Below, piece after piece: positions 19,627 to 32,139 of a DNA stretch of 64,000 bases. This DNA comes from Promethearchaeota archaeon (lineage in GTDB: Archaea > Asgardarchaeota > Lokiarchaeia > Sigyniarchaeales > SOKP01), in contig JAFGGO010000061.1 of NCBI GenBank assembly GCA_016930515.1, forward strand, positions 32,001 through 96,000. Direction: 5' to 3'. The notes under the pieces were generated by a model. The model searched no databases. It saw only the letters and a list, made by a program, of their open reading frames with translations, and was not told the origin of the DNA. The position numbers and the translations under genes were made by a program. The stretch's first letter is position 1. Each line of letters starts with the position of its first letter.

Positions 19627-20853
19627 ATGATAAAAGAAATTAAAAAAGGAAACACCTTCGTTGTTAGAGGTGCAACGCGAGTTAAGTTACTTGAAGGTGA
19701 ATTGGAAGTTCTTGGAAAAGACATATTGCCGGGTAAGGAAGACGTTCCAACGGACGAGTCTGAATCAAGCGAAGGGATAGTCATCGTTCCAAGCGCATTG
19801 TCATTTCCATTATTCGCAACAAAAAATTCAAAACTTGAAATTTTTACAAGTAGTGATGAGAATATTGAATTAGTAAGTGAAAATTCCATCCCTCTTGAAT
19901 GGAAAAAAATTAAAGATAATTTGATCGAAAAAATCAAGAATTACGAAAGTACAAAGCCTCTAAAAATAATGGTCCTGGGAATTAGTAGTGGTAAAACAAC
20001 CTTAATAAAATATCTCGCCAATAATTTCATAAGAGAGGGACTTCAAGGCGGGTATTTAGATAGCGATTTGGGGCAACAAATTTTACTCCCAACCACCCTC
20101 ATGGTGGGCTTGATAGACAAACCGTTCATAAACCTCAAGGAAATTGGCGAAGAAAAGAGATATTTTGTTGGAGCGACCTTTCCAAAAGGAAACCTCAAGT
20201 TTATCGTATCTCATTACACGAATGCCATGATTGAAGAATTCTCTAAAAATCACAAAAATCTCAAGTATATATTGATTGATACGGACGGATGGGTAAAAAC
20301 CGAAGCAGGATGTGTTTACAAAAGTTATTTCGTGAAGAAAGTCGATCCAGACATTCTAATCGTGTTTTTTGACAAGGAGATCGAAGAATACGATAAAATT
20401 CTTTCCAATGCAAAGGAAAGAAAGGATAGGAATGTCATCTTGATAAACGAGAAAAACAAGTATTTCTACGAAAAATCCAAAGAAGAACGAAGGTTTCTCC
20501 GTCAAAGTCGATTTGCTCAGGTTTTTGAAAACTTTCAGAAAATTACCATCCCTTTAAGAGATTTAATATTTATAAAACGTGATTACGATACCGAAAAAGA
20601 CGAAGTTATTGAAGTTGAGTTAGGTCTTAAGAATTTAGTGAGCCTTCCATACCATTATGTAATCGTGGGATTATTAGATGCTAATTCAAGCTTGTTAAAT
20701 GTTGCGTTGCTTTTTACCGTAAACATTGAAAAAGGATACGCTTTGATTTTTACAGATCTTTCATACAAAGAACAGAGAAAGATAAAAAAGATCTTGCTCG
20801 GAAGCTTGAGACTTTCCATAAAAGGAAACCATCAAGGATACCTTTATTTGTAG
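19627..20853 (+). CDS. Clp1/Nol9/Grc3 family polynucleotide 5'-OH kinase
   Basis: VLGISSGKTTL (P-loop), LDSDLGQ, IDTDGWV, KEERRFLR clasp; N-terminal beta-rich domain. Confidence 0.88.
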   Translation: MIKEIKKGNTFVVRGATRVKLLEGELEVLGKDILPGKEDVPTDESESSEGIVIVPSALSFPLFATKNSKLEIFTSSDENIELVSENSIPLEWKKIKDNLIEKIKNYESTKPLKIMVLGISSGKTTLIKYLANNFIREGLQGGYLDSDLGQQILLPTTLMVGLIDKPFINLKEIGEEKRYFVGATFPKGNLKFIVSHYTNAMIEEFSKNHKNLKYILIDTDGWVKTEAGCVYKSYFVKKVDPDILIVFFDKEIEEYDKILSNAKERKDRNVILINEKNKYFYEKSKEERRFLRQSRFAQVFENFQKITIPLRDLIFIKRDYDTEKDEVIEVELGLKNLVSLPYHYVIVGLLDANSSLLNVALLFTVNIEKGYALIFTDLSYKEQRKIKKILLGSLRLSIKGNHQGYLYL

Positions 20854-20906: not shown

Positions 20907-22379
20907 ATGGACGAGAATAAGCTCTTGAAATTCGTAGAACTCATGTCAAAAAACATCTCTGATTCTGATCTCGAATTAGTTAATTTGGGATCTTCCTTAG
21001 GATTGGATTTAGTTTCGTTTCGAGAACTCAGAGAATCTCAAGAAGACGATTTCGTCGATAAAATAAGGTCTAAAGCTCTTAAAATCATGAAAAAAAACGG
21101 AGATAATCTTTTGAGCAATAAAGACTTGTTCTACGCAGGGAGCATAGATTTCATGGTTTCTGACGAACCCGGAGGAAAAAAGTTTTTCCTTCTTGAAACG
21201 AATGGTGGGAGCAATAGGGGGCTTTCGATTCTTTCAAATAAGCAACAATCCATCATGTACAACGGTTATTTTAAGGCCATTGAGCAAGCTATCGAGAGCA
21301 ATAAGAGAGGAGACGGTAGGATTTTATGTTTAGTCGGTGTTCCGATAAATGACGGATTAATTCACGAAAAAGTGATCATGCTCGATTATTTGAGAAAAAA
21401 AATCAGGGAGAAAGGAATGAGCGTGAAAATATACAATGTAAACAATTTTTCTAGCGATTTTGAAGTCGAGGTGGCTTTCTTGATTGCTGATTACAACCAA
21501 TTGTCTACCACGATCTCCTTCATAGATAATTGGGTGGTTTTTAAGGAACACGCCAGAGTTTCGGTTTTAATCGGAGATGGAATTGCTCGAAGGCTCCACG
21601 ACGAGGCTTTTTCTATGTTAATACTAGAAGATTTCAGGAAGATAAATTCAATTATCATAAATCCCGTCTTTAGGATAACCGATGATAAGTCTCTTACCTA
21701 CTTGGCCAGCCATTTTGCTAGGAATGAGTTGGAAAAATACGATCTGAAGTACCTTCATTTTACAAAAGCAAATACAGAAGAAGAATTAATAGAAAAACTC
21801 AAGCACTTGTTAAAAAAATATAATAAACCCTTTATCATCAAACCAAACGGTGGTTCTGGTGGGGCAGGAGTTGTTCCTATAGGTCCCGAACAGGATTTTA
21901 ACGAACTTCAAAACTTGATAGAAAAAAGTAAATCCGAATTTTTTTCAAAATTCATGAAGAATAGGAACCCTTACCCGTATACAATACAAGAAATGGCTCA
22001 ATTCTCTCTTATTTGCCCACCTTGGAAGATAGATAAAATGGAAAAGCACACTTTTGATGTGAGAATTTACATGTCACAAGATAAAGACGGTATCATCATC
22101 CCCATAGGGGGTCTTGCGAGAATTGCCCGCAAAACATATCACGGTACTCTTGATAAGGAAGAGTTTGTAGTAAACCTCTCTGGTTTTAACGGAGAAATCG
22201 AAGTGTTTCGCGGTAGAGGTATTTCAAAAAAGAACGCTGAAATTCTGGATTTAAATAAGAAAGACCTCGTGAAGATCTTTTCTATAGGTTGTATTCTTTT
22301 CGCAAGCATGGCAAATAACTACAAAAAAATAATATCATTTAACGATTGGGACAAGTTGATTGGTCAAGATGAATGTTAG
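20907..22379 (+). CDS. Circularly permuted ATP-grasp amide/peptide ligase
   Basis: N-terminal GSIDF...FLLETN, then INP...TDDK, IIKPNGGSGGAG, YTIQE, FDVRIY, GGLARIA, VVNLS. Confidence 0.82.
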   Translation: MDENKLLKFVELMSKNISDSDLELVNLGSSLGLDLVSFRELRESQEDDFVDKIRSKALKIMKKNGDNLLSNKDLFYAGSIDFMVSDEPGGKKFFLLETNGGSNRGLSILSNKQQSIMYNGYFKAIEQAIESNKRGDGRILCLVGVPINDGLIHEKVIMLDYLRKKIREKGMSVKIYNVNNFSSDFEVEVAFLIADYNQLSTTISFIDNWVVFKEHARVSVLIGDGIARRLHDEAFSMLILEDFRKINSIIINPVFRITDDKSLTYLASHFARNELEKYDLKYLHFTKANTEEELIEKLKHLLKKYNKPFIIKPNGGSGGAGVVPIGPEQDFNELQNLIEKSKSEFFSKFMKNRNPYPYTIQEMAQFSLICPPWKIDKMEKHTFDVRIYMSQDKDGIIIPIGGLARIARKTYHGTLDKEEFVVNLSGFNGEIEVFRGRGISKKNAEILDLNKKDLVKIFSIGCILFASMANNYKKIISFNDWDKLIGQDEC

Positions 22380-23523
22380 TACTCTAGAAAAATTATTAGA
22401 TACTTCAAAGCGAAAAGACCTTTTTGACGAAATTTTAAATAAGTTGCAAGATTTAGATGGAACTAACGGATTTACTTGCGAACTTCACAAAATATCTGAA
22501 GGAACGATACCTGTCGTATATTTCAACAAGCAACATAATACCAACGAGGTCCAATCGCTTAAGATCTTTATTGGTGCCCAACACAACGAATATAACGGAT
22601 TATTTGGGATCTTGAATGTTTTAGATTTATTAAAAAACGAAGAGATCTCACATAGACCAATAATTAATAAAAGGCAAATTCTTGCGTTTTTTCCTATCAT
22701 GAATCCTTATGGCTTTCTCAATCCCCGAAAAGATAACAAATCAGGATATTTTTTAAAAAACGGTTCGAATTTGAACAGGTTTTGGCGTAGAACCTTCGTT
22801 CCAGGATTTGAAGGAAACGAAGCAGATCTTATTGATCATCCAATACCAGAACACGCCATCCTTTTAAAAAAATTAATCAAACCTTATTGGGACAACGAGA
22901 AAATTGCCATTTATATTATAGATTTTCACGAGACCTCCCTCTTAGAGAGGTTTCCTAAAGAACTTAGCATGAATTTAAGCCCATATTATAAGTTCGATCA
23001 TTGGTTAAAGGAATCTATCGTTGAAAATGTGATGAGATTATACGATATTAAGAGTTTTCGAGAACCATTATTCTTCAAGTGTAATAATTCGGCAGATCAC
23101 AATCATTTGAACTTGTCGTTCAAGCAAGTGGAAAAGGTTCGCGAAAAATTATTCGAATTTATGGCTGAAAATCGTAGGAAATTACCCTTTTATCTCGTGC
23201 ACAGCAAAAAAAGCAAGGAACCATGCACACAACTAAGTATACGAGTTTTAGAAAAATTAGGAAATATCTTGTGGAAGACGGCAATTGCCGTTCACGATCA
23301 CGAGTTTCACGACCACGGTTGCTTGGTAAGAATGAACGATGTTGCGAAACGAGAAAATTTATTTTGCGTGGAATTGGAAAACCAAAAGCAATTTTTCGAC
23401 TTGTTTGAAGAAAAAATGAAATCAACGGCAGATTCGGAATATTTTCAAAATAAGTTAGAAACGGTCAACAAGACGATCGAGTTGATAAAGGAAACGATAA
23501 TCGAGACGATTAGATTGCCCTAA
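22369..23523 (+). CDS. M14-like zinc carboxypeptidase / succinylglutamate desuccinylase-aspartoacylase superfamily protein
   Basis: GAQHNE, PIMNPYG, NLNRFW, IDFHE, CVELE; ATG at 22369 overlaps upstream gene by 11 nt (ORF track starts at TTG 22360). Confidence 0.78.
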   Translation: MNVSTLEKLLDTSKRKDLFDEILNKLQDLDGTNGFTCELHKISEGTIPVVYFNKQHNTNEVQSLKIFIGAQHNEYNGLFGILNVLDLLKNEEISHRPIINKRQILAFFPIMNPYGFLNPRKDNKSGYFLKNGSNLNRFWRRTFVPGFEGNEADLIDHPIPEHAILLKKLIKPYWDNEKIAIYIIDFHETSLLERFPKELSMNLSPYYKFDHWLKESIVENVMRLYDIKSFREPLFFKCNNSADHNHLNLSFKQVEKVREKLFEFMAENRRKLPFYLVHSKKSKEPCTQLSIRVLEKLGNILWKTAIAVHDHEFHDHGCLVRMNDVAKRENLFCVELENQKQFFDLFEEKMKSTADSEYFQNKLETVNKTIELIKETIIETIRLP

Positions 23524-24813: not shown

Positions 24814-25179
24814 ATGGCAAAGAAAAAGAAAGTTATGCCCGAACCCGAAGACGATGAGGTTCCTGACGGAGTTGTTGACGAGGACGGTGACGAAGTCTTA
24901 GATTTGGATGCGGAAAAGGACGATGACCTTTACGACGATATCGAATACGACCTGAGCCAGATTGAGGATGACATGTTAGCCGACGAGAATGAGGACGAGG
25001 AATTTGGCCCCGAGATTGACGATGTTATCAAAATGCTTAGAGCTGTCAAATGCGCGCCATGTCCTGGAAGCAAATCCAAGGTAGAATGTCAAATACGACA
25101 CGATTACGGCTGCCCGCCCGACAAAGCGGAAAAGTTCGTCCCGAAGACCGAGGCTGAGAGAAGAAAAAAAGTAAAATAA
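24814..25179 (+). CDS. Small highly acidic protein with Cys4 motif and basic termini
   Basis: D/E-rich tract of about 60 aa, C-x2-C-x8-C-x7-C, SD-like GGTGA upstream. Confidence 0.8.
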   Translation: MAKKKKVMPEPEDDEVPDGVVDEDGDEVLDLDAEKDDDLYDDIEYDLSQIEDDMLADENEDEEFGPEIDDVIKMLRAVKCAPCPGSKSKVECQIRHDYGCPPDKAEKFVPKTEAERRKKVK

Positions 25180-25511: not shown

Positions 25512-26516
25512 TTAGTATTCTATTAGGTTCTGAATCATCCTTGTAATGCCTATGTCAAAAAAGTTAGTAAATGCGTTAAGGTAATATTTGACAATGTTTC
25601 TAAATTGTAATTCTGGTGCAAGTTGCTCATCGTGTTCAATCGATTCAAGTTCTTGGTTTAATTCAGATAGGAACACCTGAAATTTCGAAACCGTTTCTTC
25701 GTTAATATTATCAAAATTCTTGATGAGGTTTTGCAATAGGTTTGGAATCTTGATTAGCAACGAGGAATACTTATTGACGGTTTCAGAAGGTAACTTAAGG
25801 AAGCGAAAAGCCTCATTGATGAAATCACGGATGTAGAGTAGCACGACGCGGTTTCCTAAGAATCGAATGATAGGCAAGTTCCGATATCCTTTAGAAAGGT
25901 GATATCCCGAAAGACCCGTGATCAAAATCCTCGTTCCCAAGGAATATTTGCGATCAATTTCGGCCATAATAAGTTCGTAATTCGCTATTTCTATTTTTGC
26001 ACCTTTTTTTTTCGATGATTCTATTATAGATTCAATAATTGTTTTAAACACCATAGCAAGGTCTTTCAACACATCTATTAAATCTGTTTTTGAAGTGTCT
26101 AATAGGAAAATAATGTAAAATTCGTTACTTTCGACGATGTCCTTGAAATCTATCGCAATGATTTCTTGCCTTAATTTTATGAGCAATTCGTACAATTTTT
26201 GCTTAATATTCTGGTTATATTTTATATAAATTTCGTCTACATTGAGTTTAAAAGCAGAAATAATTGCCTGGTTTAGTAATGCTAAAGTCCATTCTTTTCC
26301 CGATTTTACGGGGTTAATTCTCAAGACGCGCTTTTGTTCGTCTTCTCGAGTAGCAATGATTATATTTCTATCGTTGATAGGATACATGATAACTTCAGAT
26401 TTCTCTTTTAAATCTGCGGCTTCGGCCCATTCTTGAGGAAAAGTCACTGCCTTGGAGTTTCCAAGCTTTATTATATTTCGAACATACTTGTCTTTAAAAC
26501 CACTCATTTTATTCAC
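25512..26516 (-). CDS. AbrB/MazE-type DNA-binding domain plus PhoU-like helical domains (archaeal phosphate-uptake-regulator architecture)
   Basis: RNIIKLGNSKAVTFPQEWA; IISAFKLNVDEI; EIDRKY. Confidence 0.75.
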   Translation of the reverse strand: MNKMSGFKDKYVRNIIKLGNSKAVTFPQEWAEAADLKEKSEVIMYPINDRNIIIATREDEQKRVLRINPVKSGKEWTLALLNQAIISAFKLNVDEIYIKYNQNIKQKLYELLIKLRQEIIAIDFKDIVESNEFYIIFLLDTSKTDLIDVLKDLAMVFKTIIESIIESSKKKGAKIEIANYELIMAEIDRKYSLGTRILITGLSGYHLSKGYRNLPIIRFLGNRVVLLYIRDFINEAFRFLKLPSETVNKYSSLLIKIPNLLQNLIKNFDNINEETVSKFQVFLSELNQELESIEHDEQLAPELQFRNIVKYYLNAFTNFFDIGITRMIQNLIEY

Positions 26517-31271: not shown

Positions 31272-32139
31272 AAAAAGATTTAACGATATCGTCAGGATTA
31301 CTAATAATCCTATACTTTTTTCTAAAAAAATTACACAAATTTTGGATATCCCTTAATAAAAGTAATCGAGCGTTAGGATGATCGCTCGGAACGGATTGTA
31401 ACCAATCAATGATCAGGATGTTCCCCTGTTGATCGAGAACGATGTTAAATTCTCCTAAATCTCCGTGAATTAGGTTTCCTTTTTGATAAATATGCTTTAT
31501 CTGGGAAATAATCTTATCAAATATATAACGAGGATCGTCAATATCGCTATAATACACTAATTCCTTACCGCGCAAATATTCCATAACAACCGCGTGCCTG
31601 TTGTATCCAATTGGTTTGGGCGTGTTAAGATTTAATTCATAAATGCTCCTAAGAGCTTCGTATTCTTTTTTTGCAGCAAGACGATTAACATAGAGCCAGG
31701 ACATGTGAGTTCTTTCTCCAATCAAATCTCGTAATTTTTTTATGTTTTTGAAACTCGTGCGCCCCATACGGTACAACTTCAAGGCAAAAATGTTTTCTTT
31801 ATCGTCCATGCAACTGAATACATCGGATTCTTTTCCCTTTCCAATGAGCGGACCTAATTGTGCGATTGTACCTTTTTCGACCAACGCGCGTAATGCAAGG
31901 AGGTCATAAGCTTTTGAATTAAGGGTATATCCGAGATCGTGTTTTGACGAATTACGTATTATAAGATCGTATTTATGTACCCTGTTTAATCGATATAATG
32001 TTTCTTCGATTGGGTACCTTGAATAAAACCTGATATCGTTAACTTTAACGAATTCAGATCTTTTCATCCCAATTTCAATAGCCATTAAAATTCGTAAATC
32101 TTCTTTCTCTAATTTTGTGAGTAGTCTTGCCGCTTCCAC
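31255..32139 (-). CDS. rio2: RIO2 atypical protein kinase
   Basis: N-terminal winged helix (YDLLAL), GKGKESDVF, GRTSF, HGDLGEFNI, IIDW. Confidence 0.94.
   Translation of the reverse strand: MEAARLLTKLEKEDLRILMAIEIGMKRSEFVKVNDIRFYSRYPIEETLYRLNRVHKYDLIIRNSSKHDLGYTLNSKAYDLLALRALVEKGTIAQLGPLIGKGKESDVFSCMDDKENIFALKLYRMGRTSFKNIKKLRDLIGERTHMSWLYVNRLAAKKEYEALRSIYELNLNTPKPIGYNRHAVVMEYLRGKELVYYSDIDDPRYIFDKIISQIKHIYQKGNLIHGDLGEFNIVLDQQGNILIIDWLQSVPSDHPNARLLLLRDIQNLCNFFRKKYRIISNPDDIVKSFFTNKT

Follow-up and report, generated by a model that had tools for sequence, protein, structure and literature searches.

What do two overlapping genes of an Asgard archaeon, one for a predicted ligase and the other for a predicted hydrolase, do together? 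The question arises from a 64,000-nucleotide (nt) stretch of DNA (the window; positions 32,001 to 96,000 of contig JAFGGO010000061.1, forward strand) of a Lokiarchaeial genome of about 4 Mb that is 94% complete (GCA_016930515.1), in which a 490-amino-acid (aa) ligase (LIG) is followed by a 384-aa hydrolase (PEP). An earlier sequence-only reading had proposed a reversible system in which a circularly permuted ATP-grasp ligase writes and an M14-like carboxypeptidase erases. We find that LIG and PEP represent, in this genome, an uncharacterised module that recurs among scattered archaea and bacteria, and we favour, with a little better than even confidence, the view that they make and trim a low-molecular-weight amide compound. 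The features of the locus are the following.

20907–22379, + strand: LIG, predicted circularly permuted ATP-grasp amidoligase, 490 aa (predicted local distance difference test score (pLDDT) 92, structural alignments, Pfam)
21135–21203, + strand: Mg-binding β-hairpin of LIG, residues 77–99 (strands 77–87 and 90–99; D81, E97, N99) (AlphaFold2 model, conservation)
21789–22181, + strand: ATP-binding core of LIG, residues 295–425, with K312, Gly-rich loop 314–321, E362, R386 and N423 (Pfam, conservation)
22369–22379, + strand: overlap of LIG stop and PEP start, 11 nt (open reading frames (ORFs), start consensus of homologues)
22369–23523, + strand: PEP, predicted divergent M14-clan (AstE/AspA-derived) zinc hydrolase, 384 aa (Z 21.6 to carboxypeptidases A/B; hhalign 92.9%)
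22582–22590, + strand: H72-N73-E74 of PEP, putative zinc motif, one residue shorter than HxxE (homologue alignment, hhalign)
22774–22779, + strand: N136-R137 of PEP, predicted counterpart of the carboxylate-binding N144/R145 of carboxypeptidase A (invariant; aligned with DLNR of AstE-type partners)
22927–22929, + strand: H187 of PEP (in DFHE), putative third zinc ligand (invariant; motif order)
23377–23379, + strand: E337 of PEP, putative general-base Glu (invariant; motif order only)
19627–20853, + strand: Clp1-type P-loop polynucleotide kinase, upstream of LIG (CLP1_P Pfam match, block synteny)

The two ORFs and their 11-nt overlap were confirmed. The PEP frame has possible starts at 22360 and 22369 and ends at 23523 on the + strand; the ATG at 22369, which gives MNVSTLE, is the consensus start of 46 homologues. 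The overlap is consistent with translational coupling.

We first consider the ligase. ATP-grasp enzymes activate a carboxylate as an acyl-phosphate and then join it to an amine. All motifs that had been read from LIG are present and in the same order, namely D81, E97, N99, TDDK (K261), KPNGGSGG (K312), IQE, FDVR (R386), GGLARIA and VVNLS (N423), beyond which LIG consists of helices only. Relatives as distant as 17% identity conserve D81, E97, N99, K261, K312, R386 and N423 at 90% or more, and among 61 sequences extending to the same identity the ATP-grasp Lys, the Gly-rich loop and the Mg strands (K312, G319, G321, D81, E97, N99) are invariant or at least 90% conserved. Because this catalytic set (the seven residues and the Gly-rich loop) is retained at such distances, LIG is very probably an active enzyme. 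In Pfam, ATPgrasp_YheCD matched residues 295–409 (32.3 bits; cut-off, 26.8), and CP_ATPgrasp_2 (PF14403) matched residues 297–407 with the last 95 positions of its profile at 21.3 bits, under the 32-bit cut-off; in a permuted protein whose ATP-binding core is close to the C-terminus, it is the end of this profile that should match. CP_ATPgrasp_1 and the eukaryotic glutathione synthetase model were not among the Pfam matches of LIG.

The AlphaFold2 model of LIG (pLDDT 92.2; predicted template modelling score 0.91) confirms an intact, circularly permuted ATP-grasp ligase, as had been proposed, with the Mg strands, which come last in canonical ATP-grasps, placed at residues 77–99, N-terminal to the pre-ATP-grasp and central domains. 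Its overall Z-scores against many ATP-grasp enzymes were 11–15, and the extent of the alignments discriminated between two groups: permuted ATP-grasps cover model residues ~18–476, almost the whole chain, whereas canonical ones (ArgX/LysX, carbamoyl-phosphate synthetase, Ddl, TTLL6, TTL and synapsin) cover LIG only from about residue 137. The best structural match was 3k1t of Methylobacillus flagellatus (Z 15.1; 334 residues; model 56–476), which was deposited as a ‘putative gamma-glutamylcysteine synthetase’ and shares the circular permutation; its identity to LIG is just 14%, and 3k1t is itself without a demonstrated function. Glutathione synthetases (2HGS, 1M0W) and GspS, YgiC and YjfC likewise match nearly the whole of LIG with permuted folds (Foldseek E 4e-12; Z 12–14.4, with 14.4 for YjfC/YgiC, 13.0–13.6 for eukaryotic glutathione and homoglutathione synthetases and 12.6 for GspS). 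Glutathione synthetase and GspS-type ligases carry out acyl-phosphate amide ligation on small molecules; they differ from LIG in sequence (identity 10–14%) and in their partners, and LIG has no amidase domain. Cp1B, the ligase of E-64 biosynthesis, was also among the Foldseek matches. The closest structures of LIG (3k1t, YjfC/YgiC, glutathione synthetase, GspS and Cp1B) are thus all permuted in the same way, and all are small-molecule ligases.

By sequence, LIG is not an ortholog of any characterised enzyme: its best PDB sequence match was a 60-residue stretch of PurD (E 0.005) and its NCBIfam scores were all far under cut-off. An exhaustive search of 1.84 billion representatives yielded only 74 clusters, many of which are full-length at 21–42% identity. 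Across the window's own Lokiarchaeial family (f1), LIG is 50–72% identical, chorismate synthase from the same gene block 60–68% and PEP 39–55%. A distant metagenomic relative of the ligase (P0305; 674 aa; 23% identity) carries a fused N-terminal GPP34 (GOLPH3-like) domain.

Turning to the hydrolase, no Pfam family matched PEP at E up to 0.1, including PF24827 (AstE_AspA_cat) and PF00246 (Peptidase_M14); nothing relevant was found among PDB sequences, even with a 47-sequence profile; and the best NCBIfam score was just 14 bits, to an acetylornithine deacetylase model. The structural model of PEP (pLDDT 89.2), by comparison, aligned with carboxypeptidases A/B at Z 21.6 over 252 residues (root-mean-square deviation 3.1 Å), and Foldseek gave a probability of 1.00 for the carboxypeptidase fold, with bacterial CCP-like and other M14-like structures listed. 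Judged by this model, PEP has a complete M14 carboxypeptidase fold that the sequence libraries missed. A helical segment and one β-hairpin precede the modelled catalytic core, and the C-terminus is helical (H345–354, H358–381), without a barrel-sandwich domain. Both folds that the sequence-only reading had proposed were therefore recovered by structure prediction.

The M14 motifs claimed for PEP stood in most of their residues. Every homologue has N73, E74, N112, N136, R137, D185–E188 and E337, and H72 and P113 are kept in at least 90%; residue 114, the third of the proposed NPYG, differs among homologues, and H-N-E is one residue short of the HxxE of the family. Further invariant residues are H244, H246, H311, H316 and C318, and C238 and C286 are at least 90% conserved. 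In the zinc motif region hhalign opens a gap, and an ungapped alignment sets the invariant Q71 at the His position; either the H-N-E or the Q71 arrangement could bind zinc. A Gln zinc ligand reportedly has a precedent in Csd4 (Chan et al. 2015).

For the ancestry of PEP, we compared it by hhalign with nine AstE-type proteins that are partners of the ligase elsewhere and score 75–97 bits on PF24827. The alignment (probability 92.9%; E 3.7e-7) covers 90 N-terminal columns and sets the N-R pair of PEP on the DLNR of the partners; E337 was placed by motif order only. PEP has in common with AstE/AspA (succinylglutamate desuccinylase, aspartoacylase; PF24827) the motifs NP.(A/G)F, (D/N)LNR and D.H, and differs in having H-x-E for HxxE, helices for the C-terminal barrel-sandwich, and the extra invariant His and Cys residues. 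This alignment, together with the adjacency of ligase and AstE genes across phyla described below, is strong evidence that PEP is a fast-evolving descendant of an AstE-type partner. M14-clan enzymes cleave the amide adjoining a free carboxylate, and the characterised AstE/AspA-type members are deacylases of small N-acyl amino acids.

Next, we examined how the two genes are distributed, using a 301-genome sample of the Asgard phylum that includes 68 sister genomes of f1 and 7 genomes of a sister Lokiarchaeial family (f2). LIG occurs in 64 of the 68 f1 genomes, in one f2 genome and essentially nowhere else (67/301), and PEP in 41 f1 genomes and the same single ligase-bearing f2 genome. Wherever both occur, PEP lies directly 3′ of LIG on the same strand. 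An apparent ligase–hydrolase fusion in one genome (G210; an 885-aa open frame) resolves into two ORFs. The stretch from aroC to orf302, a block of ~15 kb, is collinear throughout f1, so that adjacency of LIG and PEP within the family proves little; two f2 contigs (L074 and L067) retain the pair in another gene context.

Outside f1 we collected 24 ligase loci (foreign loci). A genome scan gave ligases of 30–40% identity in Hadarchaeota, Methanohalarchaeum, Thermoplasmatota, Helarchaeota, Actinomycetota, Chloroflexota and Bipolaricaulia. An AstE_AspA_cat gene adjoins the ligase in 16 of the 24 loci, whether upstream, downstream or convergent, and these loci come from all of the named groups except Helarchaeota; the AstE-type partners in other phyla carry a barrel-sandwich signal. 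The remaining eight comprise two with PEP-type hydrolases, one with an M20 peptidase (Helarchaeota), four ended by a contig edge and one (L044) with a response-regulator gene downstream. A pairing that turns up in several archaeal and bacterial phyla, with the genes in different orders, is strong evidence from gene neighbourhoods that ligase and M14-type hydrolase are coupled in function. In the Helarchaeota locus (L070, 2493–8840), Metallophos, HD, RtcB-like and ligase genes are met by a convergent M20 peptidase gene in place of the AstE/M14-type hydrolase. Four Anaerolineae contigs (L053, L054, L057 and L058) carry a duplicated ligase, tandem or convergent, and the tandem paralogues suggest stepwise amide formation.

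The foreign loci also revealed a third partner. Nineteen of the 24 encode, no more than two genes from the ligase, a protein of ~400 aa without a Pfam family. Its motifs are collinear with those of the RNA ligase family RtcB (KPN.CG/DINCG, SNHF/GNHF, H.S.SE/HTGSRG, HQG/AHN and PHGGGY/HGAGR, partner first); PHGGGY corresponds to the RtcB HGAGR with its guanylylated His, and the Cys/His metal ligands are retained. Comparison of the profiles by hhalign gave E 4.8e-4 over 242 columns with a probability of just 32%, the Pfam RtcB model matched 3 of 16 members, all under cut-off, and a profile of the family found no match among PDB sequences. In the ESM Atlas, the family adjoins a cluster with the RtcB family in 13% of its members. 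We refer to the protein as RtcB-like. HD or calcineurin-like phosphoesterase genes often flank its gene.

Within the Asgard sample the RtcB-like family is found in 141 genomes, compared with 67 for the ligase; the alignment used holds one non-member row (a TruD protein, L049), and the weaker Asgard matches (E about 1e-31 to 1e-57) call for caution. In f1 the gene is present in 64 of 68 genomes, on contigs other than that of the ligase. Three f1 genomes (98–99% complete) have cleanly deleted the ligase, with Clp1 abutting the α/β hydrolase gene in the two for which this was established, and the RtcB-like gene is missing from all three as well (naive Fisher test, 3/1/2/63 table, P~7e-4). We considered whether these were two independent co-losses; the tree leaves the placement of G252 relative to G104 and G267 open, and one or two events fit. 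From the linkage of ligase, hydrolase and RtcB-like genes across phyla, and from these joint absences, we infer that the LIG/PEP pair and the RtcB-like enzyme share a pathway.

Two side observations concern this third protein. The RtcB-like family and the Clp1-type kinase are largely complementary across Asgard families (RtcB-like without Clp1 in f2, f5, f9 and f24; Clp1 without RtcB-like in f6, f10, f15, f17–f19 and f22; both in f1, f21, f23 and f30), which may reflect alternative RNA-end chemistries. In two contigs of the sister Lokiarchaeial family (L074, 1013–3842; L104, 5406–7273), the RtcB-like gene is followed by one for pyruvoyl-dependent arginine decarboxylase, and in L074 a deoxyhypusine synthase gene comes next, a polyamine/hypusine context beside the ligase pair.

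On the reading that we favour, LIG would use ATP to phosphorylate a substrate carboxylate and pass the resulting acyl-phosphate to an amine acceptor, forming one amide bond, and PEP would hold a free α-carboxylate by means of N136/R137 and cut the same kind of bond, serving in recycling, trimming or proof-reading of the ligase product. The substrate would be of low molecular weight (such as an amine conjugate, an N-acyl amino acid or a short peptide) and not a protein, and the pair would act in one pathway with the divergent RtcB-like enzyme, encoded elsewhere in f1 genomes. A small substrate is favoured because the full-length structural relatives of LIG are small-molecule ligases, because the ancestral partner of PEP is a small-substrate deacylase and because a carrier or tail protein was not seen to accompany the pair. 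We infer both the directions of the two reactions and the small-molecule nature of the substrate from these relationships.

Several observations weigh against this reading. PEP is accessory, not obligatory, since it was not found in 23 of the 64 ligase-bearing f1 genomes and searches of 71 f1 genomes gave no canonical AstE/AspA gene; one PEP-less f1 genome retains a short remnant of PEP (residues 319–377) after the ligase. The H-x-E spacing is atypical, which makes zinc binding by PEP only putative. No biosynthetic neighbour accompanies the ligase consistently, and neither the window nor 11 foreign loci yielded a riboswitch or leader, so that no clue to a ligand comes from there. The HD and calcineurin-like context of the RtcB-like gene is as compatible with a nucleic-acid or phosphorylated substrate as with a plain metabolite. 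Finally, our search of the window's own genome found neither the RtcB-like gene nor canonical RtcB (PF01139), which is present in 12 of 12 other sampled Asgard genomes; the lack of both is probably an assembly gap.

A more ambitious version of the shared pathway is that the ligase, the M14-type hydrolase and the RtcB-like enzyme perform nucleotidyl transfer and amide ligation on the same molecule, such as a phosphate or nucleotide compound that carries an aminoacyl or peptide group, or an RNA end; we put this forward only tentatively. Close to it, and rated slightly lower, as unlikely, is nucleic-acid-linked chemistry proper, in which LIG would attach an amino-acid-type group to an RNA end, a modified nucleoside or a nucleotidylated intermediate of the RtcB-like enzyme and PEP would take it off again, within an RNA repair or modification pathway. 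The retained metal ligands and nucleophile His motif of the RtcB-like protein (PHGGGY versus HGAGR; hhalign E 4.8e-4), the sub-threshold Pfam RtcB matches and the ESM Atlas leads all point that way, yet the link to RtcB is statistically weak, as the hhalign probability and the lack of a PDB match by profile indicate. HD and Metallophos phosphoesterases, which adjoin the RtcB-like gene in several loci, are typical end-healing enzymes. One Actinomycetota locus has a CLP1_P kinase, RtcB-like, ligase and AstE genes in that order, and within f1 LIG always follows Clp1; against this, Clp1 occurs in many ligase-free Asgard families. The three ligase-deleted genomes that also lack the RtcB-like gene favour a joint role, whereas the far wider spread of the RtcB-like family shows that it does not need the ligase. 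We also know of no ATP-grasp amidoligase that acts on RNA.

The protein-tail writer/eraser among the targets suggested by the sequence-only reading now appears improbable. LIG would here add amino acids to a protein C-terminus or side-chain carboxylate in the manner of RimK, TTL/TTLL or LysX, and PEP would remove them. The coupling of ligase and hydrolase that this idea shares with our own stood; the protein target gained no positive support. PEP does have the whole carboxypeptidase A/B fold with the putative carboxylate-binding N-R pair, and ArgX/LysX and TTLL6 are among the structural matches of LIG (Z 11–12.5), but the protein-modifying ATP-grasps cover its canonical part only, and the full-length matches are small-molecule ligases. 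The resemblance to TTLL with CCP (M14) and to RimK, in which an ATP-grasp ligase is opposed by an M14-fold carboxypeptidase, is one of logic and remains an analogy, as it was first put: TTLL6 and TTL align from residue 137 at Z about 11, the Pfam TTL model gave a weak match in 1 of 32 LIG relatives and none in LIG, and the CCP N-domain was not found in PEP. The very strong conservation of the ligase would suit a protein target, and the block conserves an acidic microprotein, orf121, at a distance of 1.3 kb. However, among the scanned neighbours in foreign loci no small carrier or tail protein accompanies the ligase, and partner hydrolases elsewhere are of the AstE/AspA type, whose known members act on small N-acyl amino acids. 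As a LysW-like carrier orf121 was rejected, its C-terminus being basic and its gene a member of the collinear block at large. We also rejected the RtcB-like C-terminus as a tagged tail: it reads P.YVLK(I/V) with or without the ligase and mirrors the terminal strand of RtcB.

That LIG and PEP are not coupled at all in the window's genome, their adjacency being family synteny and the role of PEP unrelated, is highly improbable, since the f1-wide collinearity from aroC to orf302 and the lack of PEP from one third of ligase-bearing genomes are outweighed by a pairing that recurs outside f1 in other contexts and orders, by the 11-nt gene overlap and by PEP never being found apart from the ligase.

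The GNAT, Clp1 and α/β hydrolase genes around the pair are as they had been described. On its own strand the pair is preceded by genes for an FmdE-like protein, a GNAT and the CLP1_P kinase, with successive gaps of 104, 54 and 53 bp, and an α/β hydrolase gene converges from downstream at 20 bp. GNAT, Clp1 and the α/β hydrolase are members of the f1-wide collinear block, from which GNAT is frequently missing. Clp1 was considered as a component of the system; it is the sole CLP1_P gene of the genome, is common in Asgard families that lack the ligase and stays when the ligase is deleted, so its position probably reflects block synteny. In some genomes genes are inserted between Clp1 and the ligase; the two that we compared are mutually unrelated, and a comparison of one with the RtcB-like family showed no relationship. 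The N-terminal half of orf121 (24814–25179, + strand; 121 aa) is hyper-acidic and its tail basic, and the microprotein also carries a C..C...C......C cluster; its gene is conserved beside the α/β hydrolase across f1 and is inverted in the window relative to other genomes. Farther on, at 25512–26516 on the − strand, a 334-aa protein with an N-terminal MazE/AbrB-type (SpoVT-AbrB) domain is block-conserved in several genera. Block membership of GNAT, Clp1 and the α/β hydrolase, the RtcB-like partner and the frequent loss of the hydrolase are additions to what the sequence-only reading had held.

Operons of CP ATP-grasp, alpha-E and transglutaminase-like genes are said to have been described by Iyer et al. 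2009. They resemble the LIG system in that a permuted ATP-grasp ligase stands in a conserved operon whose product is not known. Alpha-E and transglutaminase genes, already reported as lacking at this locus, were found neither among ten window neighbours nor among the scanned neighbours in foreign loci, and the third partner of LIG is RtcB-like instead. Arrangements in which an ATP-grasp ligase is paired with a hydrolase of the AstE/M14 kind are already known; outside Iyer et al. 2009 and Burroughs and Aravind 2016, our literature search found no paper on this ligase family or on the trio.

The ligase is about as conserved in f1 as chorismate synthase and yet has no name, dedicated family model or known product, which shows that the map of Asgard metabolism or modification has a real gap here. 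PEP illustrates how far the sequence of an M14-clan enzyme can drift while the fold is retained. The linkage of the ligase to AstE/AspA-type and RtcB-like proteins defines a three-protein set for joint expression and assay. An RtcB-like enzyme with a substrate other than RNA, or RNA bearing an amide-linked group from the ligase, would each be new biochemistry. Should the three act on one molecule, the trio would carry out a reversible modification of an undescribed kind, kept in Asgard archaea and scattered bacteria.

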